DNA of 44,840 bases from Chiloscyllium plagiosum (GCF_004010195.1 NC_057717.1:105372770-105417609); one strand, 5' to 3'; shown: positions 1-42,745, counted from the first letter of the stretch. The notes: generated by a model from the letters alone, not told the origin. Program-made: numbers and translations.

Positions 1-1365
1 AGAAGGCAGGGGGGTGGCGCGGGTGGGGGAGGAAGTGGTGGTGACCACGGCAGTAGGGGTGGCGGAAGTAACTGAGCATATGGCATCAGCGATGATGTGA
101 GGGGTGGAAGTGATGTCACATGTGATGCATGAGGAATTGTGAGGGGTGGAAGTGGTTGGGGCAGTGGCCATAATGGGGGCGGAAGTGACATCATCAATCA
201 GCGTGGGGGTGGCAGCTGCATCAGCCACATGGCAATTGGCGTCTGCGTAGTTTCCGAGGCCGGGGGAATCTTCTGGAATGTTTGAGGAGTGCTGGTTATG
301 GAGGTGGGTAGATAAAAGTTTGTTGTACTTACAGTTTTTGATGTTTGAATGGAATTGAAATACTGTTTGTTGAGAGTATGAATTCTCCTGAGGATGTAGT
401 ACCAAGTGGGTCCTTTGCAATTCTGAGAGAATGTGGCCCGCAGCTGAGGCAGGGCTGACTGTAGAGAGGTTAGGTGCCGGCGCATTGCTGCGAGCGTGGA
501 GCAGAGGATCTTGAAGGAGAACCGTTGCTGGTGTTTTTGAATCTGTAGTCTGTACTAGTGCTCACCTTCCACCCTACTAACCTTCGCATAAACCAAATCA
601 TCCACCGACATTTACGCCACCTCCAAAAAGACCACACCACCAGGGATATATTTCCCTCCCCACCCCTTTCCGCCTTCCGCAAAGACCGTTTTACCTGCAC
701 ATCCACTAATATCATTTATTGTATCCGTTGCTCCCGATGCAGTCTCCTCTACATTGGGGAGACTGGGCGCCTCCTAGCAGATTGCTTTAGGGAACATCTC
801 CGGGACACCCGCACCAATCAACAACACCGCCCCGTGGCCCAACATTTCAACTCCCCCTCCCACTCTGCCGAGGACATGGAGGTCCGAGGCCTCCTTTACC
901 GCCGCTCGCTCACCACCAGACGCCTGGAGGAAGAACGCTTCATCTTCCGCCTCGGAACTCTTCAACCCCAGGGCATCAATGTGGACTTCAACAGTTTCCT
1001 CATTTCCCCTTCCCCCACCTCACCCTAGTTCCAAACTTCCAGCTCAGCACTGTCCCCATGACTTGTCCGGACTTGTCCTACCTGCCTATCTCCTTTTCCA
1101 CCTATCCACTCCACCTTCTCCTCCCTGACCTATCACCTTCATCTCCTCCCCCCCCCTATTGTACTCTATGCTACTTTCTCCCTACCCCCACCCTCCTCTA
1201 GCTTATCTCTCCACGCTTCAGGCTCTCTGCCTTTATTCCTGATGAAGGGCTTTTGCCCGAAATGTCGATTTTGCTGCTCCTTGGATGCTGCCTGAACTGC
1301 TGTGCTCTTCCAGCACCACTAATCCAGAATCTGGTTTCCAGCACCTGCAGTCATTGTTTTTACCT
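1..1365 (+). mobile_element. Penelope-like element, family A (Neptune-like): GIY-YIG endonuclease and 3' end on + (558-1365), preceded by a probably inverted 5' ORF segment on - (1-557)
   Basis: ORF 558-1028 contains NIIYCIRCSRCSLLYIGETG...FREH...VAQHF (GIY-YIG); hammerhead motif at 1239; closely similar copy at 39131-40250. Assignment of 1-557 to the same element is inferred. Confidence 0.85.
1236..1270 (+). ncRNA. Minimal type I hammerhead ribozyme motif, family A
   Basis: CTGATGA (1239-1245), A, stem II GGGC/TTTT/GCCC, GAAA, TGTC; predicted cleavage after 1266; very short stem I. Confidence 0.7.
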
Positions 1366-1817
1366 CGGAGGTTAAGGAAGGTGAACGACCAGTGAAATTT
1401 ATTGTGGACTGGTTGCCAAAATTCCTCAACTTGGAGGCTGGAATGAGAGGCTTGAAGATTGAGAGGGCTCACTTGGTCACAGAGCAGAGGTCAGGTCTGG
1501 ACCAATGTCCTTGTCCTGTATGGGTGAAGTTTCATCACTATAGAGATAAGGAGAGAATCGTGGAAGTTTCCAGAATCGAGGGGAAGGATCTGAAGGCCCT
1601 AGTTTATGTGGGCTCTAAGATCATGTTCTTCCAGGATTTTTCAGTGGCAGTGATCCGGAAAAGAAAATCCTGTGACGGCATCAAGAAAAGACTGAGGGAG
1701 CTTGGGATCCAGTATTCTCTGAGGTATCTGACGGTCCTTCAGATCACCTTAGATGGATCTGTACATCTCTTGTACACATCAGAGAAGTCAAGGCTCTTTG
1801 TGGATAAATTAACTTGA
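1366..1817 (+). mobile_element. L1-clade LINE ORF1p (Transposase_22-like RRM/CTD) fragment
   Basis: Motifs IERAH, VKFHHYRDKERI, KIMFFQDFS...RKRK and LRELGIQYSLRY; 5'-truncated. Confidence 0.85.
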
Positions 1818-2176
1818 TCTGAACAATTTAGTATGTATAAATAATAGTGTTGGTTGGGTATATCTCTACCTCTCTTTAAAAAAAAAGTCCAGTCAGGTCT
1901 TTCTTTTCCTTTTTTTTATTGATAACAATCTGGTCTAAAATATGATGTCTTTTTATCAGTTAGCGCAGAAATACGAACTATCTAGCAGGGACCTCTTTCG
2001 TTTTTTTCAAGTTAGGGATTTTATTCAAAAATGACTACACTTTTGACTGATCCCTACAAATCTACATAGAAAAGAGGGTGCTCAGTGCTATGAGTACACT
2101 TTCTGTCAGCACTTTATATCAATAAAAATGTACTTTAAAAAAATGAACATTATGTCTTTGTTATTGTCAACCATAG

Positions 2177-2314
2177 AAGTTGAAACTAGAGGACGCAACT
2201 CACTCCATTCTTACCTGGTCATAACACTAAGTTGGACCACAACTAGACTCCTGCTCAATTTCAGTCTGTTCACGATGGACCGAGTTGACATCCTGGAGGA
2301 AAATCGATGGAAAG
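2177..2314 (+). CDS. Candidate penultimate coding exon of an unidentified upstream gene (EVETRGRNSLHSYLVITLSWTTTRLLLNFSLFTMDRVDILEENRWK)
   Basis: Acceptor ttattgtcaaccatag, donor AAG|GTGAGA, 138 nt, phase 1-1; only one frame is open; non-repetitive sequence. Confidence 0.55.
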
Positions 2315-5245: not shown

Positions 5246-5852
5246 CAGACAGTCACTCAAGACTAGAATCGAACCTGGGTCCCTAGTGCTCTGTGGCTAA
5301 CAACTGAGCCACTGTGCCACCCCATAATGAGTGGAGAAATAATTCCAGAACTATACCACGTGTGTCAAACATGATGTATCTGGGCTGGCAGCATCTGTGG
5401 AAAAAAGCAGAGTTAATGTTTCTGGGGAAGGGCCTTTGGATTGAAATGTTAACTCTGATTTATCTCCACAAATGCTGCCAGACCTGCTGAACTTTTCCAG
5501 CAATTTTTGTCTTTGTTTCTAATTTACAGCATGCCCAGATCTTTTGGTTTTTATGAAGTATCTGAGAGTTCATTACACGAATTCTCTGTAGTCACATATG
5601 CCTGATGGAATACTGCATTCAACAAGTATAAGTCCCTCATAGCCATCTACTGGTCACAGGGTGCAAAGCAAATGATTGAAGGTGAATAAATTGACTTGTG
5701 ACATTTTGCATTATGCCATTTTTAAAAATTCTGTTCTTTCCCCCCATTCGATCTCTTGCTGGTTCATTGCTATTAAATTGTGGTGCATTAGGTGGATTAC
5801 ATACTCCTCTATGAGCTGCTGTAAGTAAATGATGTCAGTTTGTATCCTACAG

Positions 5853-7660: not shown

Positions 7661-8262
7661 TGGATGTAAGTTTGCTTGCTAAGCTGGAAGGTTCATTTTC
7701 AGATGTTTCATCACCATACTAGGTAACATCATCAGTAAGCCTCCGGTGAAGCACTGGTGATATGACCTGCTTTCTTTATATTCTGGATCAGTGGTGCTGG
7801 AAGAGCACAGCAATTCAGGTTCAGATGTTTCATCACCATACTAGGTAACATCATCAGTAAGCCTCCGGTGAAGCACTGGTGATATGACCTGCTTTCTTTA
7901 TATGTTTACCTAAACACAAAAATAGAAAGCGGATCATAACACTGCTTCACCAGAGGCCCACTGATTATGTTCCCTAATATGGTGATGAAAACGTGATGCT
8001 GCCTGAATTGCTGTGCTCTTCCAGCACCACTGATCCAGAATCTGGTTTCCAGCATCTGCAGTCATTGTTTTTACCTGCTTTCTTTATATGTTTACCTAAA
8101 CACAAAAATAGAAAGCGGATCATAACATTGCTTCACCGGAGGCCCACTGATTATGTTCCCTAATATGGTGATGAAAACGTCTGAAAACGAACCTTACAGC
8201 TCAGCGAGCAAACTTACATCCAGAACCTCAATCTGATCTACAAATCTTGCAAAACTCACTAA
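7661..8262. mobile_element. Inverted pair of PLE family B terminal repeats with a nested composite insertion (7781-8072)
   Basis: Hammerhead-like motifs on - (7698-7739, 7820-7861) and + (about 7961 and 8147); 16-bp TSD ACCTGCTTTCTTTATA at 7765-7780 and 8073-8088. Confidence 0.85.
7698..7739 (-). ncRNA. Minimal type I hammerhead ribozyme motif, family B (duplicated at 7820-7861)
   Basis: The - strand reads CTTA-CTGATGA-T-GTTACC-TAGTAT-GGTGAT-GAAA-CATC-TGAA. Confidence 0.65.
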
Positions 8263-8914: not shown

Positions 8915-10820
8915 AAATATAGAAACTAAGAGCAGTCAAAGGTCATTTGGCCCTCGAAGCTTGGTCCACAGTTCGACATGAACATGGCTGATTATCTATC
9001 TCAATACTACATCCCTGTTTTCACCCCATAATCTTTGATGCTTTGAAAAGCTAAAAACAAATCCATCATCTGCTTGAAAAAATTCAGTGACTTGACCACC
9101 ACAGCCTTCTGACAGAGAATTCAGTCAGATCCTCTCTCAACATTCTAAATTCTAATGAATACAGATCCAGTCAAACCAATCTCCTTCATGGGATATTCCT
9201 GCTATCCCTGGTCTTCCTGAAGAAGAGTTATACCCAAAACGACGACTTCTCCACCTCCTGGTGCTGCCTAGCTTGTTGTGTTCTTCCAGTCTCCTACTTG
9301 TCTATTTTGGATTCCAGCATCTGCAGTTTTTTTTTAAATTGCTGGTATCAGCCTAGTGTACCACTGCCACACCTTCCCACTGCAAGTATATTCTTTCTTA
9401 GGTAGAGACTAAAACTCCAGGTATGGTCTCACCAAGGCCCTGTACAACTGCAGTAAGACATCCCTACATCTGAACTCAAACCCCCTTGCAATGAAAATTA
9501 ATATACCATTTGCCTGTCTAATTGTTTGCTTCACCTGCCAGTCTACTTCCATTGACTTGTGTAGAAAGACACCCTACTCCAGATGTCTTTAGAATTTTGG
9601 AAGGTGGCCACCAATGCATCCAATATTTCCTTTAGTATACTTGGATGTGAATCATCAGGCCCTGATGACTTGTCAAACTTGTGGGATATAAATGAATTAA
9701 TGTTGTTTCTGCAAGTATAAATTCTGATACAGAACAGGAATGAGAAAATACATATTCAGCAAAAAGAAAGGATATGTTAGCATGAGACGTGAATACAGAA
9801 CAATGGTGGATATATGGGCAAACAGGAAAACATCTGTTCTCCTCGCTTGCACAGAGATACAGGAACAAACCCTAATTAAAGAGGTCAAAGTGGCCTCTGG
9901 ATGGAAATAGATGCTGATAGAAGAAAAGATATGCCTAATCAATAACCTACGGTAGACTGACGTCAAACACCCTTATGGGAGTCAGAGATAAGAGTTTGTC
10001 ACGGACAAGACAGGATAAACAGAAGTTGTGGGATCAGTCTTAAGGAAATGAGTGACGTAAGCGAAGCAGGGAACAAACAATGGAATAAGGAAAACATATG
10101 GGAAAAGAAACTGTATAAATTGTAAGGGTTTTTTGGGATATAGTGTGCATTTTGTCATTACCTTACCTGGTAATTAGACAAAGCACCTACCTATAGGTGT
10201 ACAAATAAATGGCTGACTCAGATATTCGTCTCGGACTGAAATTATTAAAGTGAGTGAGCTTTTGTTTCTCACAAACTTTAACCTCATTAATTTCCTCAGC
10301 ACCATTTTCTTATTAATATGGTTTCCTTCAATTCCTCCCTCTCACTGCCTCCTGGTTTTGCAACATTTCAAGAGCTGTTATTTGCGCCCTCTTTTGTGAA
10401 GACAGGACCTAAGTAGCATGTTCAATTCTTCTTCCATCTCTTTGTTCCCCATTTTAAATTCCTCAGCCTCTGGTTGTAACTGACCTACATTTGTCTTGTA
10501 CTCTTTTTGTCTTCACATATTTTCTAAGTTTTTAATGCCCAATTTCTATCTTGATTGCATTTTTACTCTCGTATTTTCCCCTCGTCCTCTTTGCTGAATT
10601 TCTAAACTGTTATAGTCCTCAGGTTTGCTGACTTTTTTCTGGCAATTTTATCGTTTCCACTTTGGATCTAATGCCACGTCTAATTTAACTTTTGAGAGTC
10701 ACGGTTCCTCTTTTATATTTGCGCCAGACAGGAATTAGTAATTCTATTTCATGCACACGTTCTTTAAACATGAACCATTGCCTATGCCCTCTGAACTCTT
10801 CGTAAGGCTACCCAATCCAT
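8915..10820 (-). mobile_element. Decayed CR1-like LINE interrupted by a PLE remnant (about 9213-9340) and a solo LTR
   Basis: CR1-type 3' UTR and RT remnants, e.g. ccaggtatggtctcaccaaggccctgtacaactgcag. Confidence 0.6.
9680..10273 (+). mobile_element. Solo LTR, 594 bp
   Basis: Ends TGTGGGA...TCTCACA; 4-bp TSD AACT at 9676-9679 and 10274-10277; TATAAA at 10114, AATAAA at 10204. Confidence 0.85.
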
Positions 10821-12826: not shown

Positions 12827-13510
12827 AGAGCTGAAAATGTGTTGCTGGAAAAGCACAGCAGGTCAGGCAGCATCCAAGGAACAGGAGAATCGATGTTTCG
12901 GGCATAAGCCCTTCAGGAATGAGGAAAGTGTGTCCAGCAGGCTAAGATAAAAGGTAGGGAGGAGGGACTTGGGGGAGAGGCGTTGGAATTGCGATAGGTG
13001 GAGGGAGGTCAAGGTGAGGGTGATAGGCCGGAGTGGGGTGGGGGCAGAGAGGTCAGGAAGAAGATTGCAGGTTAGGAAGGCGGTGCTGAGTTCGAGGGAT
13101 TTGACTGAGACAAGGTGGGGGGAGGGGAAATGAGGAAACTGGAGAAATCTGAGTTCATCCCTTGTGGTTGGAGGGTTTCCAGGCAGAAGATGAGGCCTCA
13201 ACACATCTATCCTAGGACAAGCCAAACAGAGACATGCACGAGAATTCCTAGAAGCGCGGCACTCCGGAACTCGATCAACAAACACGTTGACTTGGATCCC
13301 ATTTACCACCCCCTGAGAAAAAGAACATCACCAGGAAATGACATCACCAACCCAAGGAAACCTATACACACAAATAAAAAGTGGGCCATACCACCAGTGC
13401 TTCACCAGAGTCTCACTGATGATGTTACCTAGTATGATGATGAAACAGCTCAGCGAGCAAACCAAATCCAGAACCTCAACTTGAGCTACAAATCCTCTCA
13501 AAACTTGCTG
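12827..13510. mobile_element. PLE family A fragment (-, 12827-13198) joined to a PLE family B 3' end (+, 13199-13510)
   Basis: Similar to other copies in the window; defective hammerhead motifs near 12890-12918 (-) and at 13416 (+). Confidence 0.75.
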
Positions 13511-14409
13511 AAATAAATTATCACCAAATGACACTGTTTACATGTAAGGTCATCAGCAAAGCAGTAGAGAACAGTTCATACCAGAAATTTGATTCCTAAC
13601 CTTGTTTATTAGAAAAGTGGATAAGTAGTTTGCAAATTAAAGTTAAATGGTTTGATGAATGTTAGTAAATGGTCACCTGATTTAAAAGCTAAATAGTACA
13701 TTTTGTACAATATGTTGAAATAGTGATACTGTCGATGTAAAACTTAGTTAAAACATTGATTTTTGGCATGGACATATAGTGAGAGTTCTATTTTATAGGT
13801 ACAATTTGTACCAATTTCCAGTGGATTAGTTGATTCAACGGATGTACTTTTAAACAAGAGCAAGCATGCATTATTTTTAATACAGTGACTCTTGACAAGA
13901 GAGTTTAGAATTTTGATTAATTGACGTGTAAAAATATTCAGTTCAGCTTCCAAATTCCTTGCCTCCAATTGTGTACAGAATCTTTGTGTAAGACAAAGCC
14001 CTGGATGAGATGTAAACTTATTACTGCTTACAAAAGAAAATATATTTATTTCCTTACTGCAGAAAACCACACTGTTTCTGTTCTACATTCCTTTGTTATT
14101 ACGTTTAAGACTGAAATGTGAATCTGTAATCTGTGGGGCTTCTCTTTGTCTTAAACTCTGGTTGATTGGTCCATGAAACCTGAATAACTCCACTCTAACT
14201 CTGTGTGATTATCACCTTTTAACTCTGAACTTTGTAGTCACTTCATCAAAAGTAGTGTGCAACATTTTCTGTCTCTCAATCAGAGATTAATCTGAATAAG
14301 CAGTATTAATACAGTTGAAATAAAGTAATCCAGAAAAGCAGGAAAGAGCCAGTCACAACACATTGACATTTGTCATTTACGTGCTCATTTTAACTTTAGA
14401 ATGACATAA

Positions 14410-14619
<210 letters not shown>

Positions 14620-15875
14620 TGATTGGATAGTATATTGAGTTTCATAAAATTTGTGTAGTTTCATTCAGAAAAAAGAAGTGATGGCTTTGGTGTCCAACAC
14701 TGCCTCTGAAATCTTCAGGACGTTAAGCATTTCTTAAGAGGCTTTGTTTAACATTGTAATACATTGCAGTGCTGGGTATTGCAGATAGGAGTAGGTCTTT
14801 CAACCTTTACAACTCATTTAGTCGTTATATTAAATAATAGTGGACCTGTAACTCCATTCCACTTCCCTGCCTTTAATCAACATCATTGATAGGAGTGCGA
14901 CAATTTCCATTCAATTAACATCGACATCTTTTGAGGATGCAAGTTCAGCATTCTATTATCCTTTGTGTGAAAAGGTGTTTCCCTGATTACACACTTAAAT
15001 AGCCAAACTCTATTTTTAAGATTGTGCTCCCTAGATATGTATCTACTCACTGGATAAAATAGATTTTCTCAAACTGCATATTGAATCCAACATCATTTCA
15101 ACCACTTCAATTAGGTCACTCATCAACCTTCTAAATTCAAGGCAGTGCAAGGTATACTTGCACAACCTTTGCTATAATTCAACCCTATTATGCTTGGTAT
15201 GCTGGCGAATCTGCACTATACACACCCTAAGACTAATTTGTTTACTACTTGGTGTAGGAGCCAAAACTAAAGACAGGCCAATTTTGCTGTATGACTGAGG
15301 TGTAACTTCCTCTATTTTGTAGTCCACACTGACAAACAACCTTCGATGGCCTTTGCACTAGCTTTTAATAATTTATGTTCCTGAAGATGGTTTTGATCCT
15401 CCACAGCTCCTTGTCTTCCAGGAAGAAATTGTTCAGATACATAGAAATACCACCACCCGCAAATTCCCCTTCAGCCATTCACTATCCTGACTTGGAAGTA
15501 TATCGCTATGTCACTGGGACAATCTCCTGCCCCCTCCCTAACAGCACTATGGGTCTGCCTACACCAAATGGATATTTCAAGAAGACAGTTCATCATCTTC
15601 TGGAGGGCATTTGGGAATAGGTAATAAATACTGACCTGGCCAATTACATCCCCATAGGAACTGGTGTAGGCCAATCAGCCCCTTGAACGTGTTTCACCAT
15701 TCAATTAGATCATGGCTGATCTACGGCCTAACTCATGTACCTGCCTTTGGCCATATCCCTTAATACCTTTGCCTAACAAAAATGTATCTATCTCAGATTT
15801 AAAATTAACAACTGATCCAACATCCACTACCAAACATCTACCATCCTTTGTTTGCTTCCTCATAGAGCTGTACAG

Positions 15876-16462
15876 TATATTTCCCTCCCCTCCCCTATCA
15901 GCATTCCGTATATATTTCCCTCCCCTCCCCTATCAGCATTCCGTAAAGACCACTCCCTCCGTGACTCTCTCGTCAGATCCACACCACCCACCAACCCAAC
16001 CTCCACTCCCAGCACCTTCCCCTGCAACCGCAGGATGTGCAAGACTTGCGCCCACACCTCCTGTGAGAAACAAAGCTCACTCACTTCAATAATTTCAGTC
16101 CGAGACAAAAATCTGAAGCAGTAGTGTCATTTATTTGTACACTTGCAAGTCACAAGGAAGGGACAAAACACACACCGAATTCGACAAACGCTCGATATTT
16201 ATATAATTTGGCTTCTTTTGTTCTTCAGGAATGAGGAAAGTTTGTCTAGCAGGCTAAGATAAAAGGTAGGGAGGATGGACTTGGAGGGGCTTTGGAAATG
16301 CGATAAAAGTCCCTCCCCCAAGTCCCTCCTCCCTATCTTTTATCTTAGCCTGCTGGACAAACTTTCCTCATTCCTGAAGAAGGGCTTATGCCCGAAACGT
16401 CGATTCTCCTGTTCCCTGGATGCTGCCTGACTTGCTGCGCTTTTCCAGCAACACATTTTCAG
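15876..16462 (+). mobile_element. PLE family A pieces with an inverted terminal repeat (about 16223-16462) and an embedded LTR 3' fragment (-, 16062 to about 16222)
   Basis: SAFRKDHSLRDSLVRS...TFPCNRRMCKTCAH Cys linker; intact hammerhead at 16374; 16062-16140 is the reverse complement of sequence similar to the 3' end of the LTR at 9680-10273. Confidence 0.75.
16370..16405 (+). ncRNA. Minimal type I hammerhead ribozyme motif, family A (sense strand of intron 2)
   Basis: CTGAAGA (16374-16380), A, GGGC/TTAT/GCCC, GAAA, CGTC with palindromic ACGT. Confidence 0.75.
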
Positions 16463-16463
16463 C

Positions 16464-16775
16464 ATGGAAACAGACCTTTTGGTCCAACTCATCCATGCTG
16501 ACCAGATAATCTAAGTTAATCTAGTCCCATTTGCCAGCATTTGGCTCATATCCCTTCCTATTCATATATCTATCCAAATGCCTTTTAAATGTTGTAATTG
16601 TACCAGCCTCCACCGCTTCCTCTGGCAGCTCATTCCATACACTCACCACCCTCTGCATGGAAAAGGTTGCTCATTAGGTCCCTTTTAAATCTTTCCCCTC
16701 TCACCTATGCCCTCTAGTTATGTACTCCCCTACCCTGGGGGAAAAACCTTGACCATTCACCCTAACTATGTCCCT
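16464..16775 (-). mobile_element. CR1/HER1-type LINE 3' fragment
   Basis: Same family as 4487-5038. Confidence 0.8.
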
Positions 16776-24846: not shown

Positions 24847-25419
24847 NNNNNNNNNNNNNNNNNNNNNNNNNNNNNNNNNNNNNNNNNNNNNNNNNNNNNN
24901 NNNNNNNNNNNNNNNNNNNNNNNNNNNNNNNNNNNNNNNNNNNNNNNNNNNNNNNNNNNNNNNNNNNNNNNNNNNNNNNNNNNNNNNNNNNNNNNNNNNN
25001 NNNNNNNNNNNNNNNNNNNNNNNNNNNNNNNNNNNNNNNNNNNNNNNNNNNNNNNNNNNNNNNNNNNNNNNNNNNNNNNNNNNNNNNNNNNNNNNNNNNN
25101 NNNNNNNNNNNNNNNNNNNNNNNNNNNNNNNNNNNNNNNNNNNNNNNNNNNNNNNNNNNNNNNNNNNNNNNNNNNNNNNNNNNNNNNNNNNNNNNNNNNN
25201 NNNNNNNNNNNNNNNNNNNNNNNNNNNNNNNNNNNNNNNNNNNNNNNNNNNNNNNNNNNNNNNNNNNNNNNNNNNNNNNNNNNNNNNNNNNNNNNNNNNN
25301 NNNNNNNNNNNNNNNNNNNNNNNNNNNNNNNNNNNNNNNNNNNNNNNNNNNNNNNNNNNNNNNNNNNNNNNNNNNNNNNNNNNNNNNNNNNNNNNNNNNN
25401 NNNNNNNNNNNNNNNNNNN
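24847..25419. other. Assembly gap (573 N) in intron 4
   Basis: Run of N. Confidence 1.
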
Positions 25420-26869
25420 ATTAAGATTGAGCCTAGGACACTAACAGGAAAAGCACCCGCTGCCACAAAACTATTCGCTGATCCCACCTTCACTGCCTTT
25501 TCAGGCAGGGAATTCCAAAGTTACACATGCCTCTTGAGGAAAAAAAAGTTCTCTCCTCTCTGACTTAACTTTTTGTCAGTGATCCCATATTCTGAACTGT
25601 CCCAGAAGAGAGAACATCCTTTCAACACCTACTTTGTCAGGATCTTATACACTTCAATCAAATCAACCTGCACTCTGCTAAAACCAGTTTCATCCTATCT
25701 AACCCTTCCTCATGAAACAACCCACTCGTTCCAGGTGTCAATCTGGTACATCTCTTCTAGGCCATTTACGTCACTCCTTAAATCGGGATACAGAACCTGC
25801 AATTTTATGTTGCGTTTTACAACCTTTTTTTTCAAATGCTATCTGAAGCATTAGTTATAGAAGTTTTCATAGAAAATTGAACCCCGAGCCGTATGCCTAC
25901 ACACTATTGTGGAGCTCTTCTAGCTTCGGGAATGGGAATTATGTATCAGGCTTCAGGTTTTCTCACACCTACGTAAAGCACCATCGATATGCTTCTACAT
26001 AAGGGACACTACCTCAGTAAAGTAAAGCAACGAGCTGTGAATGCTGATAAGTTGTTTCTGTCTTTGCATCCGTGAATCCACAGTAGTGTTTTGATTGGAG
26101 TGTACCGAGCTAATCCCCTGAAATATTTTATAAATTAGATCATCCTGCCCAGATGGTTTGATCACTGTTGCTATTGTTCCACTTGCTAGTCTTTTGGACA
26201 AATACGATATTGGATGGAGTATAAAAATGATAGCATTGACTTCTCCTGTCTCAATTTTTGGCAAAAGAAGTTGGTCATGGTAGTTGCTACTGTCTTCACA
26301 CACAGTTACCATCCATCAACATTTCATGTTGCCAAGAGTTGGTACAAGATGGGCCTCGGAAATCCAACATTTTGTTTGCATGCAAAAGTCAAAGCTCAAT
26401 GGATGCATATAACGTATTGTTGTTGATGTATGTACAGTTGCTGTGGATTTAAATAGCAGGAATATTGGAAGAATCAGGAGTTCATAAGTTGGTCCCTTGG
26501 TTTTATGACTCTGGGGAAAAAAAATCACTTTGTACTTTGCCCTAGGCATATGAGAAACAAGCAAGTGATTGGAAATAAATAGAATATGAAAGCTCTCCTC
26601 TTTCAATCTTACCCAATCATGATACATTTTATGTATTTTACCAGCACATACCCCAGACAAATGGGTTTTAGTCCAAAAGTAGTTAAGGGGAAGCAGTCAA
26701 TTTAATGCTTGGTCAGAAGTGCACTTTAATTTATTTTTTTTCATTCTTTCATGAGATGAGGGTATTGCTGAGTAGACCAGTACTTATTGGCCATCTTTAA
26801 TTACAGTTGAGAACCTGCTTTGGACCATTTCAGTCCTCTGGGTGCAGGTGCGTTGACAGTGCAATTTGT

Positions 26870-27495
26870 TTTGTCATTTATCTCAAGAGGGTTGGAATAT
26901 AAAAGCACTGTTGTGCTACTGAGACTTTATAAAGCTCTGGTTAGGCCGTATTTGGAGTACTGTGTCCAGTTTTGGTCCCCACATCTCAGGAAGGACATAC
27001 TGGCACTGGAGTGTGTTCAGCGGAGATTCACACGGATGATCCCTGAAATGGGTGGTCTAACATATGAGGAACGGCTGAGGATCCTGGGATTGTATTCATT
27101 GGAGTTTAGACGATTAAGGGGAGATCTAATAGAAACTTACAAGATAGTACATGGCTTGGCGAGGGTGGACGCTAGGAAATTGTTTCTGTTAGGCGAGGAG
27201 ATAGGACCCGTGGACACAGCCTTAGAATTAGAGGGGGTAAATTCAGAACAGAAATGCGGAGACATTTCTTCAGCCAGAGAGTGGTGGGCCTGTGGAATTC
27301 ATTGCCCCAGAGTGCAGTGGAGGCGGGACGCGGAATGTCTTCAAGGCAGAAATTGATAAATTCTTGATGTCACAAGGAATTAAGGGCTACGGGGAGAATG
27401 CGGGTAAGTGGAGTTGAAATGCTCATCAGCCACGATTGAATGGCGGAGTGGACTCGATGGGCCGAATGGCCTTACTTCCGCTCCTATGTCTTATG
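26870..27495 (+). mobile_element. CR1 LINE 3' fragment
   Basis: LRLYKALVRPYLEYCVQFWSPHLRKDILALECVQRRFTRMIP; CR1-type 3' UTR ending ctcctatgtcttatg. Confidence 0.92.
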
Positions 27496-28190: not shown

Positions 28191-28667
<477 letters not shown>

Positions 28668-30205: not shown

Positions 30206-30502
30206 TGATTAGATTAGATTACTTATAGTGTGCAAACAGGCCCTTCGGCCCAAGAAATCCATACCGACCCTCTGAAGAGCAACCCACCCAGACCCATTCC
30301 CCTACATTTACCCCTTCACGTAACACTATGGCCAATTCACCTAATCTGCACATTTTTTGGACTGTGGGAGAAAACCAGAGTACCCGGAGGAAACCCACGC
30401 AGTCACTGGGAGAATGTGCAAACTCTACACAGACAGTCGCCTGAGGTGGGAATTGAACCCGGGTTTCTGGCGCTGTGAGGCAGCAGCGATAACCACTGTG
30501 CC
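30206..30502 (-). mobile_element. tRNA-derived SINE (HE1-like)
   Basis: B box GGTTCAATTCC and (AATCT)n tail on the - strand. Confidence 0.85.
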
Positions 30503-30976
30503 TGTGATCTTAAAATTGTAGCTAGGCTATTCAAGATAATGGCAGAACACACTTCTTCATACAAAGGGCAAGAGAAATCTTGACCTCCTCTTAGCTAGGA
30601 CAGCTTTTTTGTAGGTGAGGATTAATTAAATGTGTTAAAACTGAGGTTGATTAATAGTTTTTGTTAGACAGCAGTATTAGACAAGAGACTTTGTGAAGGA
30701 ATCAAGTTACAGATACTTAAACTATGAATCAGTCATGATCTATTTGAATAGTGATATGGAGTTGAGGGACTGAATGGTCTCCTGATGCAGTGTTCCTAAC
30801 ACTTGCTTTTGAGTTGTGTGTGTATTAACTTAAAGTTTAGAAAGGATGCTGGTATCCATGGAAGTTACTGCAGTGAGTTGATAACTTTGTGAGACCTGAG
30901 TGGAGAGTAGAATACTTTTTTTAAAAAAATCAAATAATATAATGCCTAAATATATGTTAAAACTTTTGTTTCATAG

Positions 30977-31243
<267 letters not shown>

Positions 31244-33749: not shown

Positions 33750-34690
33750 CCCCGCATAGCCCGGTTCTACCTCCTACCCAAGATCCACAAGTCTAATTAC
33801 CCCGGCAGACCCCATTGTCTCGGCCTGCTCCTGGCCCACCGAACTCACCTCCACATCCCCCTCCCCCCCGATCCAGGAACTCCCCACATATGTTCAGGAC
33901 ACCACTCATGCCTTCCACCTCCTCCAAGACTTGCGTTTCCCTGGTCCCCAACGCATCTTCACCGAGTACATCCAGTCCCTATACATCTCCATCCACCATG
34001 ACGAGGGCCTCCAAGCCCTGTTTCTTCCTCTCCCGACGTTCCCATCAGTACCCTTCCACTGACACACACACTAGTCCTCGCCCTCAATAATTTCTACTTT
34101 GAATTCTCCCACTTCCTCCGGACAAAAGGGGTAGCCATGGGCACCTACTCGCAGAGCGATTCAAAGAACATCTCCGGGATACCCGCATCAACCAACCCCA
34201 TCACTCTTTGGCCGAACACTTCAACTCCTCCTCCCAGGACATGCAGGTCCTGGGCATTCCTCACTAACCACCCGATGCCTCGAGGAAGAATGCCTTATTT
34301 TCCGCCTTGGGACCCTCCAACCCCAGGGCATCCATGTGGATTTCACCAGTTTCCTCATTTCCCCTCTTTCCCCCCCCACCCCACCTTTTCCCAGTTCCAA
34401 ACTTCCAACACAGCACCACCCTCATGACCTGTCCTACCTGTCCATCTTCCTTCCCACCCATCACCATTACCCCCCACCTCCAAATACCAATCGTACTTTC
34501 AGCTACCTTCCCCCCAGCCCTCTTCCATTTATCCCACCACCCCCTTGGCTCACAGCTTCATTTCTGATGAAGGATTTTGCCTGGAATGTCGATTCTCCTG
34601 CTTCTCTGATTCTGCCTGACCTGCTGTGCTTTTCCAGCACCACAGTCTCGACTCTAGTCTTCAGCATCTGCAGTCCTTACTTTCACCTAA
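33750..34690 (+). mobile_element. Internally deleted PLE family A copy
   Basis: RT and GIY-YIG remnants, pyrimidine-rich 3' UTR, degenerate hammerhead at 34564. Confidence 0.75.
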
Positions 34691-34779
34691 CATTTATCTC
34701 TTGCCTATCCAAAACATAATCTGATTATTAATTTGAATACAATTTCTGTGTCTTTGCTGCACTCAGCTTGACTGACACA

Positions 34780-36895
34780 TAAGTTAGAGTTAGCGAGTTG
34801 TGAGAAGATTTGTAGCTCAGGTTGAGGTTCTGGATGTAAGTTTACTTGCTGAGCTGGAAGGTTTGTTTTCAGACATTTCACCACCCTACTAGGTAACATC
34901 AGTGAGCCTCTAGTGAAGTACTGGTACTACATCCCACTTTCTATTTGTGTGTTTCGGTTTCCTTGGGTTGGTGATGTCATTTCCTGTGGTGATGTTTCCT
35001 CTTCTTTTTCTCAGGGAGTGGTAGATGGGATCCAAATCGATGTGTTTGTTGATAGAGTTCCAGTTGGAATGCCATGTTTCTAGGAATTCTCATGAATGTC
35101 TCTGTTTGGCTTGTCCTAAGATGGATGTGTTGTCCCAGTTAAAGTCATTTTCAACCAAACAGACTACATTGAGAAAGCGAATGCACTGCTTGCAGATACC
35201 AACACTTCCCAACAGGTGGCGATACATCTGACCCCCACAACTAGAGAACTGAATCACAGCCTTACTCAAAAAACTTCAGAAATCTGGAGAATTAAACAAG
35301 ACAGACTTGCCAAAAATGAAACCAGACAGCTCCAACACACCACGCCACAATGGATTACCCAACATTCACAAACCAGGGGCCCTCCTCAGACCTACAGTCT
35401 CGCTATCTGGAACACCAATGTACAGATTAGCTAAGGAACTACACCAAAGACTAAAACATTTAGTAGAAGACTCACGCCACTCCATTCACTCCACCCAAGA
35501 ATTCCTGAACACTATCAAAGATACCAAGATAGGAGAGGATGAAATAATGGTCTCCTTTGATGTAACAGCTGTGTCCACATACATCAAGTAATACTGACTA
35601 CACAATTAGAAGACTCAAAGACACACACACCAAATACCACCAACTTCATCAGCAAGGACATCATCATCAAGCTGGTGGCCCTATGCCATACCACCCATTT
35701 CACTTTCAATAACAAAACCTACAGACAAACCAACGGAACACCCATAGGATCTCCGATATCAGGGTTCTTAGCAGAGATGCAAACAAACAACTGCCAACCA
35801 TCCAACCCTAACTTTGGGTCCGCTATGTAGATGACACCTTTGTCATCACTAAAAGAAACAAATTAGAGGAAATTTTCAAGATCATCACTAATACCCTTAC
35901 TGGCATAAAGTTCACAAAAGAGGAGGAAAACCACAACAAACTGCCATTCCTAGATGTCACAGTAGAACGAACAGTCAGTGGGGATCTTCAAACCAACGCC
36001 TACAGGAAAACAACACATACGGACCAAATACTGAACTACAGAAGCAATCATCCCAAACTCCACAAACAAAACTGCATTAGAACATTATTTCAATGAGCTG
36101 CCACACACACCAGCACCAAGGAACTAAGAAGAGCAGAAGAAAACCACCTATCCAGTGTACAGAGGAATTTTGATTGTCTGAACGAGATGGGCGGGGCATT
36201 ATTTCATTCAGATAATTGATTATTCAGTTAATTGATTCAATGCCTCTGCTCTGGGGCTCCGCGTTTCTAAAGTTTCCTTTGTCCTTGCTCTGCCTGCCTT
36301 GCTCCCTCTCTCTGTCTCTCTTTGTTTCTGAGCAGACACACACATGTGTGCAAGGGACCTGCAGCATTGCTGAAGCCGACCCCTGCCCCCCAATCAGTTG
36401 CACTTGCTAGGTCCACTCCCCGTTCAGGAGACTAGGCAGCAGCACACTGCGCGTGAGCCTCCACCCCCTGCAAATCTGACCCCAACCGGCCCTCCATTCC
36501 ACCCCCACCCCTTCCTGCCCCAACAACCCCATCTAACCCCGCCACCCATCTACCCACCAACACACGACAACAGCAGCTCATGAACTTAAAAGACCCGACA
36601 CAGACAAACAAAACTAATGTCATTTACAAAATACCATGCAAGAACTGTAACAAACACTACATTGGACAAACAGGCAGAAAACTAGCCACCAGGATACACG
36701 ACCATCAACTAGCCACAAAAAGACATGACCCACTATCACTAGTATACTTACAGACTAGGAAGGACACCACTTTGACTGGGACAACACATCCACCCTAGGA
36801 TAAACCAAACAGAAACATGCATGAGAATTCCTAGAAGCATGGCATTCCAACCGGAAAACTATCAACACATCAGTTTGGATCCCATCTGATGACCC
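34780..36895 (+). mobile_element. PLE family B (Poseidon-like): inverted terminal repeat (-, 34780-35145), RT (about 35150-36159) and GIY-YIG (about 36575-36895), all decayed
   Basis: GLPNIHKPGALLRPTVS..GTPMY.LAK, MVSFDVT, GTPIGSPISG, WVRYVDDTFVI, KLPFLDV, YRKTTHTDQILNY, NVIYKIPCKNCNKHYIGQTGR. Confidence 0.9.
36160..36570. mobile_element. Unrelated insert interrupting the PLE, beginning with a pogo/Tigger-like TIR
   Basis: TA followed by CAGAGGAATTTTGATTGTCTGAAC; no second TIR found. Confidence 0.4.
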
Positions 36896-37128
36896 GCTGA
36901 GTTTCTTCTGTAAGTCTGTTGTCTTTCAGGGAGGATACCAGTGTTGCTAGGAAGACTTTTATATCCGGATCCCTGCGGTTGAAGTTCATCCCTTGTACTA
37001 GGACGGCATTTTACGTGTTTGAGGTTCTTTATCCAAGTCTCTGATTTGTCCATGTCATTGCTGTGAGAGAGCTTGTCCAGTTTTTCTTGTAGGGCTAGTT
37101 TTTGCTTTGTCTTGGTCTGCTGTTGTTT

Positions 37129-37160
37129 CTGAAGAAGGGCTTATGCCCGAAACGTCGATT
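37129..37160 (+). ncRNA. Minimal hammerhead ribozyme core, family A
   Basis: CTGAAGA-A-GGGC-TTAT-GCCC-GAAA-CGTC; the 5' strand of stem I would have to come from the flank. Confidence 0.65.
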
Positions 37161-37990
37161 CTCCTGCTCCTTGGATGCTGCCTGACCTGCTGCGCTTTTC
37201 TAGCAACACATTTTTAAGCTCTGATCTCCAGTATCTGCAGTCCTCACTTTCTCCTCCCTGCTGTTGTTTAGTGTTAATGGCTTGTTCTAGCATACTTGTC
37301 CATTCATGGTCAGCCGCGTTAGTGTACAGAGTTTTTTGGCGCAAAATTTCTCATTTGTATTTGTGGGCATCACGTCATTTTTTTTGTCGCATTCTGTGAC
37401 TGTTCTGTTTTCCTGGCTCGTGGGGTGTTGAAACATGGTTTGTATTTGTAGGAAGTACAGTTGTTGCCATGTGGCACTCAGTCATATGGTGTTGGTTTCC
37501 TATCTTCAGGCTAATTTGAGCGTATTGCGCCCACAGGTGTTTGAGATTTTGGAGAAGATTTGTAGCTCAGGTTGTAAGTTGGTGGATTTGATCTCAGACA
37601 TTCCATCACCATGCTAAGTAACATTATCAGTGAGCCTCTGGTGAAGTACTGGAGTTCTGTCCCACTTGCAATGTATCTCTCTTGGTTTGTTGTGGTAGGT
37701 GATATCATTTCTGGTTCTGTTTCTGAGAGGTTGGTAAATGGGGTCCAAATCTATATGTTCGTTAATGGAGTTCCGGTTTGATTAAGCGAAAGTGAGGACT
37801 GCAGATGCTGGAGATCAGAGTCAAGATTAGAATGGTGCTTTAAAAGCACAGCAGGTCAGGTAGCATCCGAGGACCAGGAAAATTCCAGTTTGATTGCCAG
37901 GCATCTAGGAATTCCCACACATGCTCTTTGTATGAAGAAATGTGTTCTGCCATTATCTTGAATAGCCTAGCTACAATTTTAAGATCACAG

Positions 37991-38290
37991 GCACGGTGGT
38001 TAGCACTGCTGCCTCGCAGCGCCAGAGACCTGGGTTCAATTCCCGCCTCAGGTGACTGTGTGGAGTTTGCACATTCTGTCCGTGTCTGCGTGGGTTTCCT
38101 CCGGGTGCTCCGGCTTCCTCCCACAATCTAAAAATGTGCAGGCCAGGTGAATTCGCCATGCTAAATTGCCCCTAGTGTTAGGTGAAGGGGTAAATGTAGG
38201 GAAATGGGTCTGGGTGGGTTACGCCTCAGCAGGTCGGTGTGGACTTGTTGGGCCGAAGGGCCTGTTTCCACACTGTAAGTAATCTAAAAA
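37991..38290 (+). mobile_element. tRNA-derived SINE (HE1-like)
   Basis: GGTGGTTAGCACTGCTGCCTC head, B box GGTTCAATTCC, TAATCT tail. Confidence 0.88.
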
Positions 38291-39130
38291 AAGTCTTTGT
38301 TTAGCCTGTCCCAGAATGGATGTATTGTCCCAGTCGAACTGGTGTCCCTCTTCGTCTGTGCGTGTGGATGCCAGGGATAGTTGGTCATGTCTTTTGGTGG
38401 CTAGTTGGTGCTCAGCTAGCTTCCTGCGATTTGTCCAGTGTAATGTGTGTTGCCGTCCTTGCAGGGTATTTTGTGTATGACGTTCGTTCTGCTCGTTGTT
38501 GGTACTTTAAATTCATCAGAAGCTGTTTCAGTGTGGCGGTAGCTTGTGGGCTACCATGACGTCTAGGGGCTGGAGTAGTCTGGTCGTCATCTCTGAGATG
38601 TCTTTGATGTGTGGTAGGCTGGCTAGAGTCTCTGGGTGTGTTGGGTCATCTTGTTTAAATCTGTTGTGCAGGAATCAGCAGACTGCGCTTATCGGGTACC
38701 CTTTGTTCCTGAATACATTGTATAGGTGTTTTTTCCTTGACTTCTCTTAGTTCCTTAGTTTACTGTCGCTTGATTAAATAATGTCCTGATGCAGCTCCGT
38801 TTATGGGTGGTTGCTGCTGTAGTTGAGTATCTGGTTGAGTAAACAGGAAGACACAACATGCCCAGAGACTCTCTCCACCCTACAGTATATCAAAGAAATT
38901 GCAGAGGTGACAATTGACTACTCCAGCCCCTAAGCGTCATGGTAGCCCATAAACCTACCACCACACTGAAAAACCCCTGATGAATTTAAAGGACCCTATA
39001 CCAACAACGAGCAGAATAAATGTCATATACAAAAAAATCTGCAAGGACTGCAACAAATAGTGCGTTGGACAAACGGGCAGGAAGCTAGCCACCAGGACAC
39101 ATAAGCACCAACTAGTCACCAGACGACATG

Positions 39131-40250
39131 GTAAAAACAATGACTGCAGATGCTGGAAACCAGATTCCAGATTCTGCTGGAAGAGCTCAGCAGGTCAGGC
39201 AGCATCCGAGGAGCAGTAAAATTGTTGTTTCGGGCAAAAGCCCTTCATCAGGAATAAAGGCAGAGAGCCTGAAGCGTGGAGAGATAAGCTAGAGGAAGGT
39301 GGGGGTGGGGAGAAAGTAGCATAGAGTACAATAGGTGAGTGGGGGAGGGGATGAAGGTGATAGGTCAGGAAGGAGAGGGTGGAGTGGATAGGTGGAAAAG
39401 GAGCTGGCCAGGTCGGACAAGTCCAGACAAGGCATGGGGACAGTGCTGAGCTGGAAGTTTGGAACTAGGGTGAGGTGGGGGAAGGGGAAATGAGGAAACT
39501 GTTGAAGTCCACATTGATGCCCTGGGGTTGAAGTGTTCCGAGGCGGAAGATGAGGCGTTCTTCCTCCAGGCGTCTGGTGGTGAGCGAGCGGCGGTGAAGG
39601 AGGCCCAGGACCTCCATGTCCTCGGCAGAGTGGGAGGGGGAGTTGAAATGTTGGGCCACGGGGTGGTGTGGTTGATTGGTGCGGGTGTCCCAGAGATGTT
39701 CCCTAAAGCGCTTTGCTAGGAGGTGTCCAGTCTCCCCAATGTAGAGGAGACTGCATCGGGAGCAACGGATACAATAAATGATATTGGTGGATGTGCAGGT
39801 GAAACTTTGATGGATGTGGAAGGCTCCTTTAGGGCCTTGGATAGAGGTGAGGGAGGAGGTTTTGCAATTCCTGTGGTGGCAGGGGAAGGTGCCAGGATGG
39901 GAAGGTGGGTTGTAGGGGGGCGTGGACCTGACCAGGCGGAAAGAGGTGGGGAGGGACATATATCCCTGGTGGTGGGGTCTTTTTGGAGGTGACGGAAATG
40001 TCGGTGGATGATTTGGTTTATGCGAAGGTAGGGTGGAAGGTGAGCACCAGGGGCGTTCTGTCCTTGTTACGGTTAGAGGGGTGGGGTCTGAGGGCGGAGG
40101 TGCGGGATGTGGACGAGATGCGTTGGGGGGCATATTTAACCACATGGGAAGGGAAATTGCGGTCTCTAAAGAAGGAGGCCATCTGGTGTGTTCTGTGGTG
40201 GAACTAGTCGTCCTGGGAGCAGATACGGCGGATGCGGGGGAATTGGGAAT
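39131..40250 (-). mobile_element. PLE family A (Neptune-like) 3' half nested in a family B copy (+, about 38830-39130 and 40255-40585)
   Basis: ORF 39465-40283 has a TFPCHHRNCKT linker and the GIY-YIG NIIYCIRCSRCSLLYIGETG; the flanks continue the family B GIY-YIG and 3' end. Confidence 0.9.
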
Positions 40251-40505
40251 ACGGGACCAACTATCACTGGTATCCACACACAAAGAAGTTCAACTGGGAC
40301 ATCCATCCATCCAGGGACAGGCTAGTCAAAGACATGAGTGGAAATGCCTGGAGGCTTGGCATTCAAACCGAAACTTCATTAACAAACCCCATTTTGGGCC
40401 TATTTACCAATCTCTCAGAAACAGAACCAGAAATGATATCACCTCACACAATGAACCGAGGAGGTAAATAGCGAACAGGACAGAACACCAACGCATCACC
40501 GAAGG

Positions 40506-40547
40506 CTTACTGATGATGTTACTCAGCATGGTGACGAAACATCTGAG
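40506..40547 (+). ncRNA. Minimal type I hammerhead ribozyme motif, family B
   Basis: Stem I CTTA/TGAG; CTGATGA (40510-40516); T; stem II GTTACT/CAGCAT/GGTGAC; GAAA; CATC. Confidence 0.7.
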
Positions 40548-42499
40548 AATAAATCCACCAGCTCAGGAAGCGAACCTACAACCTAAAATTAATAAATTTG
40601 ACAGATTGTGTGTCAGTGTTAAACTCATATCTAAAACATTCTGAACTGACTAAAGTTTACAAATTGTGGGTGAGTTTTCTTGTTATGATGTATGCCATGT
40701 GGTTTACTACACATTCATATGGATTAGAAGAGTGATTTTCTGTTTTCTTCTGACCTGACCACACGCATAAAGAAGTCAGGAAATTACAATTAGTTTCAGT
40801 TCGCTAGACTAATTGGAGAATTAACTGAATTTCTCACATATTTACTATAATCTGCTACTAGCAAGTACAAGGATGTGAAAATTGGAAAAGCAGAGAATCA
40901 TGTCCTATTCCGAACACAGAATTTGCTGATGCCATTGTACTGGTAATGGAGGGGGAACCTCATACTGATACATATATAGGGTATGTCCTGTGAGTTTTCT
41001 CCACTGTTGAGTCTAATGCTTTTGGAAATGGCCTGAAATTTTCTGTAAAATGAGAAATCATTATTACTGTCAGCACAGCTGGGCTAGTACTAACTGCTGA
41101 ATCTAGTTCTCAGCATTGCGTTTGTAGGTCACTGAAGCATTACATTTATGGAAAACACTGCCAACCTTGAGCACTAAGTACAGACTTGAATCAGCAAACA
41201 CAAGAACAGGGTGACACCATTTAGTCCTTTGAGGATGTTCTATTTGATGTGTTCATGGCTACTCTATGACCTAATTTAATTAGTGCATTTTCTTTTAGGA
41301 TCTTTGTCGATTTTATATCTGTAAGTCACATGGGAAGCCATTGAATCTTGCATCATGACGTAATTCCATAATCATTGTCAAAAGTCCACACTTTGACCAC
41401 CAACTTTGACTTAAATTGAGGGATGTCATTACAATTAAAGGGCTTGTCGTGTAACAGGTAATGAATGCCCCATCTCTGAGCAAGAAACTCCAGTTTGAGT
41501 CCCATTCAAGTACTTAATCGCCAAAGAAAATCCATCCATAACATGGCTAAGTACCTGCCAATCCTTCCAACATATGTAAATATTATGATCACAGGTGATG
41601 ATAATAATACTGTACAAAATATATTCAAAAATGAAATTTTGCTTGATAGATATGTATGTTTGTTTAATTAATGTGGTGGTTAATCATTGAGACATAATCA
41701 CGAGGCTGTAATTTTCTTTAACAGAACAAAATGCAAAAAACTTTTAAAGAATATATATATATGGGATGAACTTAAAATACACCAAACAAAATTTCAACCA
41801 GTTTCCAAATATACTTTGTTACAGAGACAAGTTCACAGAAATTATACCCCTATCTCAACTTATTAGGGTTCTACTGAATTGACTCCTGACAGTTTAACTA
41901 CTGTAGACTGGGAAGCTAATTCAATTATTCCTGTCCAAATCTGCAGATGTGAACTTTTCACAAACCAGAGAGCTTAAACTTTCTTAGTTCTAATAAGCTG
42001 TTAACCAAATTTTGCCAGTTTAAAAACTTTAATCCTTCTGCTGTGATGACTTATTCTCTGAATCCTCACCTGGGAGAGGAACAAAACTTATTTATAAACT
42101 CAACACTAGTGTTTTCTCAACTGAACTGTAAACAAATGACCTATGTTTATCGAACAGTATAAACATCAGCATTTTATTGGACAAAAGGAGTCTGGCTTTG
42201 TTTCATTTTTTTTTTAAAGAAACACCTTCAGAGAAGTAACCAATACCTACCCATCTCTATTTTGAAATATAAATTGTAAAAGTTATACAAATTATACATT
42301 CAGTTCTGTGATACAAAATACGTTCTGGAACAACATCTCATGTTCAGCTTAGATGCTTTCCAGCCTCCATTTGTCTTACAACTCCCATCATACCTGTTTT
42401 GTTTACATTGCTCTCAGTGGAGGGGACGCATTCCTCCCTCTGCCCCTTAATTTACACCCATTTTACATCTCTATTTTTCTTTCAACACAACCAACAACC

Positions 42500-42745
42500 C
42501 TTTTTACACTGGGCCTTGCTTTCCATTTATATGTTTGGGTTTCTTTGGGTTGGTTACATCACCAACCCAAAAAAACCCAAACACATATATAGAAATCAGG
42601 AATCATCAGCAGTGCTTCATCTGGAGGCTCACTGATTATGTTAGCCAGTATGGTGACGAAACATCTGAAAATGAACCTTCTAGCTCAGCAAGTAAACTTA
42701 CATCCAGAACCTCAACCTGAGCTACAAATCTTCTCAAACTTCGCT
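42500..42745 (+). mobile_element. PLE family B terminal repeat with a short 5' inversion
   Basis: Hammerhead variant at 42632 (CTGATTA); family B 3' tail. Confidence 0.75.

Follow-up and report, generated by a model that had tools for sequence, protein, structure and literature searches.

What a series of short, hairpin-forming motifs represents in and around the SURF4 gene of a cartilaginous fish is the question raised by a 44,840-nucleotide stretch of the Chiloscyllium plagiosum genome (NC_057717.1:105372770-105417609), hereafter the window. In these motifs, boxes reading CUGANGA and GAAA surround a helix II hairpin. A preliminary description had taken them for three families of minimal hammerhead ribozymes, A, B and C, in more than 15 copies, and we located all 20 of the sites it named (nine of family A, nine of family B and two of family C). 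The motifs are very probably minimal type I hammerheads of the pseudo-long terminal repeat (pLTR) region of Penelope-like retrotransposons (Penelope-like elements, PLEs), and come from three lineages: a Neptune-like element, a Poseidon-like element and family C. The copies in the window are passive, mostly decayed relics, surviving within and around SURF4 in insertions that are 5'-truncated, folded back on themselves or nested. Self-cleavage of the motifs of all three families is predicted from their sequences. The features are listed in Table 1.

Anatomy and state of the hammerhead motifs

The three families share one plan. Family A reads CUGA(A/U)GA, A, GGGC, a 4-nt loop, GCCC, GAAA, CG, UC; family B reads CUGA(A/U)GA, U, GUUACC, a 6-nt loop, GGUGAC, GAAA, CG/CA/UG, UC; and the family C majority (27/30 genome loci) reads CUGAUGA, A, GGAGC, a 3-nt loop, GCUCC, GAAA, GC, UA. 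An extra unpaired nucleotide follows A9 in every family (A in family A, U in 41/43 rows of family B, A in family C), and stem II, of 4-6 bp, is closed in each by a G10.1-C11.1 pair. The stem II sequences are wholly different between the families, and complementary within each. Stem III, which the preliminary description had noted as short and often palindromic, is reduced: no family has a helix III hairpin, and a 4-nt palindrome, ACGU or AGCU, is followed directly by H17. Family C has AGCU-A in 27/30 loci, and family A has ACGU-C in 28/30 genome loci, a set biased by having been chosen as the best matches to the intact copy.

The minimal hammerheads of PLEs have four emergent features (Cervera & de la Pena 2014, PMC4209133): a nucleotide left unpaired after A9 and before G10.1, pairing of G10.1 with C11.1, a palindrome at 15.2-16.2 and several stem II families. 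All four are found here, which supports placing the motifs in that class. The likeness extends to the type I topology without a helix III hairpin, to a palindromic tetranucleotide at 15.1-16.1, to a short helix I beside a longer helix II, and to the presence of several sequence families in one genome, as well as to the manner in which the copies occur, mostly as solitary remnants of truncated elements and sometimes as close pairs on opposite strands. Minimal hammerheads were reported in Neptune and Poseidon elements of fishes in the same study, but no cartilaginous-fish host is named there, each of the three families has a sequence of its own, and helix I (2-4 bp here) lies at the short end of the published range. 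A literature search returned no paper on shark PLE hammerheads, most subscription journals being outside its coverage. With the present motifs, a class of ribozyme that has been known since 2014 gains examples from a cartilaginous fish.

The hammerheads of newt satellite 2 and of Schistosoma Sm-alpha are canonical type I ribozymes. The motifs in the window share the conserved core and the type I topology with these and with the hammerheads in Rfam. They also share a weak helix III, owing to which such hammerheads act as dimers, according to the accessible part of PMC6155905; the minimal ones of PLE terminal repeats are reported to cleave as dimers. The canonical ribozymes differ in having a helix III of 1-2 bp with a loop, and loop-loop tertiary contacts, neither of which is present in the motifs described here.

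Could such short motifs be chance matches to a brief consensus within ordinary repeats? We give this explanation next to no credence, even though the Rfam models do not score the motifs. In a covariance-model search, of the kind that had been proposed as a check, no Rfam hammerhead model matched any copy at the gathering threshold, or at E <= 10 on the whole window. Against chance stands the family A pattern CTGANGA-A-GGGC-loop-GCCC-GAAA, with five exact matches in the window versus a mean of 0.00 in 100 shuffles, and a generic pattern, CTGANGA-N8-30-GAAAC, with nine matches versus 0.72 expected (the largest shuffle count being 4), eight of the nine belonging to family A or B. Three unrelated stem II sequences, each fully complementary, argue the same way, as do the extra nucleotide, the G10.1-C11.1 pair and the palindrome that the motifs have in common with published PLE hammerheads. 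A looser regular expression, CTGA.GA...GAAA, gave 16 matches, 11 of them in the three families; by our own reading stem II is absent from the remaining five, and there is thus no fourth family with an intact core.

Two parts of the preliminary description have to be narrowed. The count of 20 sites stands, but both family C motifs are arms of a single 229-bp insertion and so are not independent; and base pairing, said to be kept by all copies, is kept by the intact ones, 10/20 having a broken core or stem. The CUGANGA and GAAA boxes are exact in 10/20 sites, the others being recognisable decayed copies. Core and stem II are both intact (copies are named by their 5' nucleotide) at 1239, 16374, 24245, 37129 and 39251 in family A, at 7735, 7857 and 40510 in family B, and in both arms of family C. 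Seven of the 20 retain a cleavable NUH site, which has been lost from 39251 (A at 16.1) and from both family C arms (G at 16.1). Four of these seven, namely 24245 of family A and the three intact family B copies, all ACAU, have no helix III pairing, and the AUGU of 1239 could still pair with itself via G-U. A perfect palindrome, ACGU, is retained only at 16374 and 37129, neither of which has a nearby matching partner on the same strand. The changes of CG to CA or TG in helix III fit CpG decay; the CpG observed/expected ratio of the window is 0.34. The broken copies comprise those with core deletions (12917, 34904), with U or A in place of G8 (7961, 8147, 42632, 37630), with the cleavage site lost (13416) and with general decay (34564, 5422, 9217). 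The cleavage points predicted earlier, after 16401 in family A and after 40543 in the family B copy at 40510, are correctly placed.

Elements that carry the three families

Genome searches were made in a 3.56-Gb assembly, in which the window sits on contig C8; the copy numbers below are first-look candidates, and identities refer to a scored subset (150 or 40 per family query). The assignment of family A to a Neptune-like element, made in the preliminary description, is supported by two lines of evidence. GIY-YIG endonuclease remnants precede four of the nine copies in the window (Table 1); PF01541 (GIY-YIG) is found in 7/7 aligned family A-type copies (best E 2.2e-05), the fragment in the window scoring 23.8 bits against a cut-off of 22.6, with a weaker match at 549-1028. 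Directly before GIY-YIG, a CX4CX2C linker, FPCHRRNCKTCAHT, is present in 6/6 long-ORF (open reading frame) genome copies, the window copy having a 4-aa gap there. A zinc-finger-like CX2-5CxxC linker before the endonuclease is a mark of Neptune and Nematis in the accessible part of PMC8557442. Family A is thus placed as Neptune-like on sequence grounds, by a linker motif that Nematis has too.

The family A endonuclease ORF has 152,753 candidates in the genome, and among the 150 scored loci, which are 88-95% identical to the window copy, open frames reach 1084 aa. Of one long-ORF copy (L100, C86271:2200-5700), 2651/3501 bases (positions 294-2944), the RT stretch among them, read N; N runs are also present in several other genome loci. 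In the family A element ~210 nt separate the endonuclease stop codon from the hammerhead downstream, and a further ~65-95 nt follow the cut site before the insertion ends. The subfamily of the 16374 copy is young, to judge from its copies: 40 full-length scored matches are 95-100% identical, and nine more are partial inverted arms. The 5' ends of its members vary, and head-to-head arms are frequent; the 3' end lies ~65 nt past the cut site, sometimes with a further tail; the direct arm of the window insertion (16221-16466) also ends ~65 nt past the cut site. The endonuclease at 36457-36798, considered as a partner of the hammerhead at 37129, was rejected, since it belongs to a family B-type element and 37129 to a separate short insertion. 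A protein atlas search returned GIY-YIG clusters with no useful taxon.

Family B, with the pattern CTGATGA-T-GTTACC-loop-GGTGAY-GAAA, has 4299 candidates in the genome; the 40 that were scored are 88-92% identical. In four genome copies (L040, L043, L046 and L050) a reading frame extends as far as the CUGA box and stops at its UGA, and in L043 and L046 this frame contains GIY-YIG (...KIPCKNCNKHYIGQTG...), to which PF01541 matches weakly, as it does in 36457-36798. The remnant at 36457-36887 is 86% identical to L043. No Cys cluster was found before GIY-YIG in 36457-36798, L043 or L046. A second frame opens at the AUG formed by A9-U-G10.1 and stays open for at least 36 codons, to the end of the element, in 17/24 family B copies versus 0/24 in each of the other frames (the start string is missing from six of the 30 loci, which were not counted). 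Copies end uniformly ~105 nt past the hammerhead, which is ~108-112 nt into this ORF. Both codons, the UGA stop in the CUGA box and the AUG start at A9-U-G10.1, lie inside the hammerhead core, the start two bases later and in another frame. RVT_1 matches near L040 and L050 were not counted as PLE reverse transcriptase (RT), as their motifs look to us like those of long interspersed nuclear elements (LINEs).

This layout resembles that of PAc, the Poseidon element of Anolis carolinensis (Frangieh et al. 2024, PMC11167929), as far as the accessible part of that report describes it. In both, the ORF starts at the beginning of stem II, with C3 and G8 upstream, and the cut site lies ~25-28 nt after the AUG. 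The PAc RT initiates internally, at a pair of neighbouring sites; in vitro mapping put its start and cleavage sites 111-118 bp into the PAc ORF, as compared with family B ends ~108-112 nt in. Both strands are extended in PAc, which fits the inverted arms of family B, and a tail is optional. The comparison is one of layout only, and differs in one respect: the ORF upstream of the family B hammerhead has its stop codon (UGA) within the CUGA box, a feature for which the accessible part of the PAc report has no mention. Together with the endonuclease that lacks a Neptune-type linker, the PAc-like layout supports the earlier suggestion that family B is a Poseidon-type element. A layout worked out biochemically in one lizard Poseidon element, with an ORF start inside the hammerhead, an RT start ~110 nt into the ORF and an optional tail, would thus recur in a distant vertebrate.

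The insertions themselves bear signatures of retrotransposition by PLEs. Their 5' ends are variable, their arms stand head to head, a long arm with a tail is opposed to a short arm without one, and in one case there is a 12-bp target duplication; 5' truncation, an inverted adjacent copy and an optional 30-40 nt tail fit Penelope-like elements of the endonuclease-bearing (EN+) kind. Copies of families A and B are paired in inverted orientation four times (12917-/13416+, 39251-/40510+, 34564+/34904- and 37129+/37630-), and the inverted copy at 34790-35136 (-) abuts a Poseidon-like remnant at 35120-36887 (+). Insertion of PLEs into or beside earlier PLE copies has been reported (PMC6765202, accessible part). 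Two units, 7661-8262 and 37547-37883, are chimeric: a family B hammerhead continues into a tail of family A type, the junction lying near a common CTGAA; in three instances a family A-type tail immediately precedes a family B copy.

The compound fold-back at 7661-8262 also bears on a different explanation, by which the motifs would not be PLE ends at all, but non-LTR retrozymes, tandem hammerhead repeats that are excised and circularised into small circular RNAs. Within the fold-back, family B hammerheads twice stand as a pair on one strand, at distances of 122 and 186 nt, and retrozymes, argued to be derived from pLTRs, are reported in one cartilaginous fish (bioRxiv 10.64898/2026.07.22.740005, accessible part). 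We nevertheless consider this very unlikely. Arrays never exceed two units, and these occur in 7661-8262 only, with single copies elsewhere; each pair forms an arm of a fold-back whose tails are A and B chimeras, the cores of the plus arm have U in place of G8, and helix III reads ACAU. The copies are scattered and 5'-truncated, and lie next to remnants of endonuclease ORFs. No joints of the back-splice type were found in an RNA run over 14400-21200, a stretch that excludes 7661-8262.

Family C is best read as a short, young and apparently non-autonomous element. The preliminary description saw no coding partner for it, and this holds: the window has none, and inspection of 33 genome loci revealed none; nor was a PLE-like ORF found by eye (no Pfam scan being made) in three extended loci. 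The genome holds 1854 candidates, and 40 full-length scored matches are 95-99% identical. Most copies are fold-backs in which a ~40-nt tail terminates one arm and is absent from the other, a one-armed arrangement that we take as the PLE tail signature described in the accessible parts of PMC8557442 and PMC11167929. In the window insertion (20880-21108) the ~40-nt tail is on the left arm, and the right arm ends in ...TTTTTAACT. Longer family C copies have ~105-270 nt of extra AT-rich sequence upstream. In being hammerhead-bearing, non-coding and resembling a non-autonomous derivative, family C is like the animal non-LTR retrozymes, which are thought to be mobilised by PLEs; these differ in forming tandem arrays that give circular RNAs, whereas family C occurs as dispersed single fold-backs with target duplications (PMC7229834; bioRxiv 10.64898/2026.07.22.740005; accessible parts of both).

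Cleavage and the role of the hammerhead

How the hammerheads would act can be outlined from the literature. In transcripts of tandem sources, two hammerheads would pair via the 4-nt palindrome (ACGU or AGCU), building helix III, and would then cleave after the H17 base, probably helped by the protein of the element. The RT would then start at internal sites downstream of the hammerhead, with both DNA strands extended, and such extension would give inverted arms and the optional 30-40 nt tail.

RNA data were examined in four runs over 14400-21200; a single raw RNA run (X13), a poly(A)-primed single-cell library with the same species label, covered families A and C. Its family C reads come from copies other than that in the window, since at 21051 and 21062 they match the majority of copies. 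The reads are strand-specific (depth 106 versus 6), and 234 of them have poly(A) after 21081 or 21084, 12-15 nt past an ATTAAA (21064-21069), while 291 extend upstream into a longer variant of the L065/L097 type. The reads cross the predicted cut site.

A number of results weigh against our reading of the motifs as PLE hammerheads, or against their cleavage. Helix I has just 2-4 bp, and even on a 101-nt stretch around the best copy (16340-16440) no Rfam hammerhead model matched at E <= 10. The RT domain was not seen in the window, RVT_1 being non-significant (E 0.1) in the Pfam search. As to compensatory change in stem II, on which the preliminary description had staked part of its case, the stems of the three families have nothing in common in sequence and each is complementary; in family B itself (38 genome rows, five window rows) such change did not exceed shuffles, 96.9% of cells pairing versus 96.0%, with three cells and two pairs changed on both sides, the number of pairs being one reached in 112/500 shuffles. 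Weak covariation within a family is as expected, because the copies are recent. Minimum-energy dimers were not in the hammerhead register, and dimer folding gave no specific energy support for dimer cleavage; instead of the 4-bp ACGU helix, the family A dimer uses a 13-nt imperfect palindrome that would sequester GAAA. The commonest helix III form of family B is ACAU, which is not a palindrome (CA in 24/43 rows, CG in 12/43 and TG in 7/43). G at 16.1 is found in both arms of the window copy of family C and in two further loci (L064 and L067; 3/30 in all) with different flanks, so that a site-dead variant has been inserted at least three times and its amplification did not need an intact site. 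Finally, there is no pile of read starts or ends at the predicted cut sites in run X13, a null result that says little, because a poly(A) library cannot see unpolyadenylated cleavage products.

Some of these observations would be accounted for if the hammerhead shape were kept for a role other than cleavage, as a fold that binds protein or positions the RT or, in family B, as a mere overlap of ORF stop and start, with cleavage incidental or absent in vivo. We think this rather unlikely, and retain it because hammerhead-dead mutants of PAc insert normally in vitro (PMC11167929, accessible part, where Anolis RNA-seq is also reported to have no ends at the cut site); the G16.1 subfamily of family C, with its three or more independent insertions, and the predominance of ACAU forms in family B point likewise. 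Naiads thrive without hammerheads, which may be parasites of PLEs (PMC8557442, accessible part), and the presence of stop and start codons inside the family B core would also suit a non-catalytic role. However, the same architecture of core and helix II recurs without any overlapping ORF in families A and C; core and palindrome are near-uniform in the young family A subfamily (28/30, in loci biased by selection as best matches); and PAc RNA does cleave, in a manner dependent on C3 and G8, when its protein is present (PMC11167929, accessible part). Catalytic PLE hammerheads remain our preferred reading, and the site-dead yet propagated variants bear on what hammerheads do for PLEs.

We also raise, as a tentative suggestion that we hold to be possible rather than probable, that family C may still be active today, as a hammerhead retroposon that is not autonomous and makes use of the Penelope machinery. 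This is suggested by its short length with discrete ends, its more than 1,800 candidates, the 95-99% identity of its copies, its own AUUAAA, its polyadenylated RNA and the G16.1 insertions. If it were true, family C would, together with the predominance of ACAU in family B, provide natural in vivo evidence that hammerhead cleavage is dispensable for Penelope-type retrotransposition.

The window and its other repeats

The window is animal DNA with long introns. SURF4 exons (Pfam PF02077) lie on the + strand at ~14410-14619, 28398-28667 and 30977-31240, with a weak one at 22286-22555 (four of 110 short ORFs), and a 2342-nt contig of run X1 aligns to the first SURF4 exon only, as a spliced mRNA would. 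The hammerhead copies at 16374, 21024/20999 and 24245 are within SURF4 introns. For annotation, this means that the introns and flanks of SURF4 are filled with inert retroelement debris. A run of N occupies 24847-25419.

Table 1. Hammerhead motifs, insertions and endonuclease remnants in the window
Feature	Position	Strand	Details
Family A hammerhead, complete	16374-16401	+	CUGAAGA, extra A, GGGC/GCCC, GAAA, ACGU, GUC site; predicted cut after 16401; SURF4 intron, sense
Fold-back insertion, young family A subfamily	16221-16466	+	Inverted arm 16221 to ~16300; direct arm ~16300 to ~16466
Family A hammerhead, complete	37129-37156	+	Identical to 16374; in short 5'-truncated copy 37116-37255
Family A hammerhead	1239-1266	+	Core, stem II and GUC site intact; helix III AUGU (CpG to TpG)
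GIY-YIG endonuclease C-terminal ORF remnant, Neptune-like	549-1028	+	Stop codon ~210 nt upstream of hammerhead 1239
Family A hammerhead	24245-24272	+	Core, stem II and AUC site intact; helix III ACAU, non-palindromic; copy 5'-truncated at core
Family A motif	39224-39251	-	Exact core and stem II; U16.1 changed to A, no NUH site
Neptune-like ORF remnant, 274 aa	39468-40289	-	GIY-YIG; linker short of 4 aa of CX4CX2C
Family A motif, decayed	12892-12917	-	3-nt deletion in CUGANGA box; endonuclease remnant upstream, ~13113-13196 (-)
Family A motif, decayed	34564-34590	+	C11.1 to U, A13 to G; after endonuclease C-terminal remnant in ORF 34135-34719 (+)
Family A motif, old, decayed	5422-5450	+	Core CTGGGGA, stem II lost
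Family A motif, old, decayed	9217-9243	+	G12 is A, stem II broken; recognised by alignment only
Family B hammerhead	40510-40543	+	Intact core, extra U, stem II GUUACU/GGUGAC (6 bp, two G-U), AUC site, helix III ACAU
Compound fold-back	7661-8262		(B 5' part, hammerhead, A-type tail) followed by (B 5' part, hammerhead, B tail)
Family B hammerheads, minus arm of 7661-8262	7824-7857, 7702-7735	-	122 nt apart; cores intact; helix III ACAU
Family B hammerheads, plus arm of 7661-8262	7961-7994, 8147-8180	+	G8 changed to U in both
Family B motif	13416-13446	+	Cleavage site deleted, one stem II mismatch; head to head with family A copy 12917 (-)
Family B 3' end	34790-35136	-	Hammerhead 34872-34904 with 3-nt core deletion; inverted 5'-truncated copy
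Poseidon-like GIY-YIG remnant	36457-36887	+	ORF 36457-36798, motif ...KIPCKNCNKHYIGQTG..., then start of 3' region; own hammerhead missing
Family B motif, decayed	37597-37630	-	G8 to A, A13 to G
Family B motif	42632-42665	+	G8 changed to U; copy begins in small fold-back 42520-42595
Family C fold-back insertion, 229 bp	20880-21108		12-bp duplication ATGTGAAAGCAT at 20868-20879 and 21109-21120
Family C hammerhead motifs	20971-20999, 21024-21052	-, +	Core and 5-bp stem II GGAGC/GCTCC intact; G at 16.1, no NUH site

Rfam microRNA families (MIR845_1, mir-4679, mir-641 and MIR6425) gave sub-threshold rows on both strands at 20955-21068, 42520-42595, 16260-16342 and 7844-7974. We do not regard these as microRNA genes; they are the long hairpins of fold-back insertions.

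Other retroelement debris lies at 1323-1817, 21308-21811, 24377-24829 and 26811-27356, all on the + strand, and includes one ORF that by eye is LINE-1 ORF1-like, two that by eye resemble C-terminal parts of LINE RTs, and an apurinic/apyrimidinic (AP) endonuclease fragment (PF03372, E 2e-09). Unrelated to the hammerhead families, a ~300-bp repeat is present in four copies that are ~80-85% alike (19718-20029, 30206-30570, 37922-38297 and 43361-43680), and has very high depth in a DNA run.

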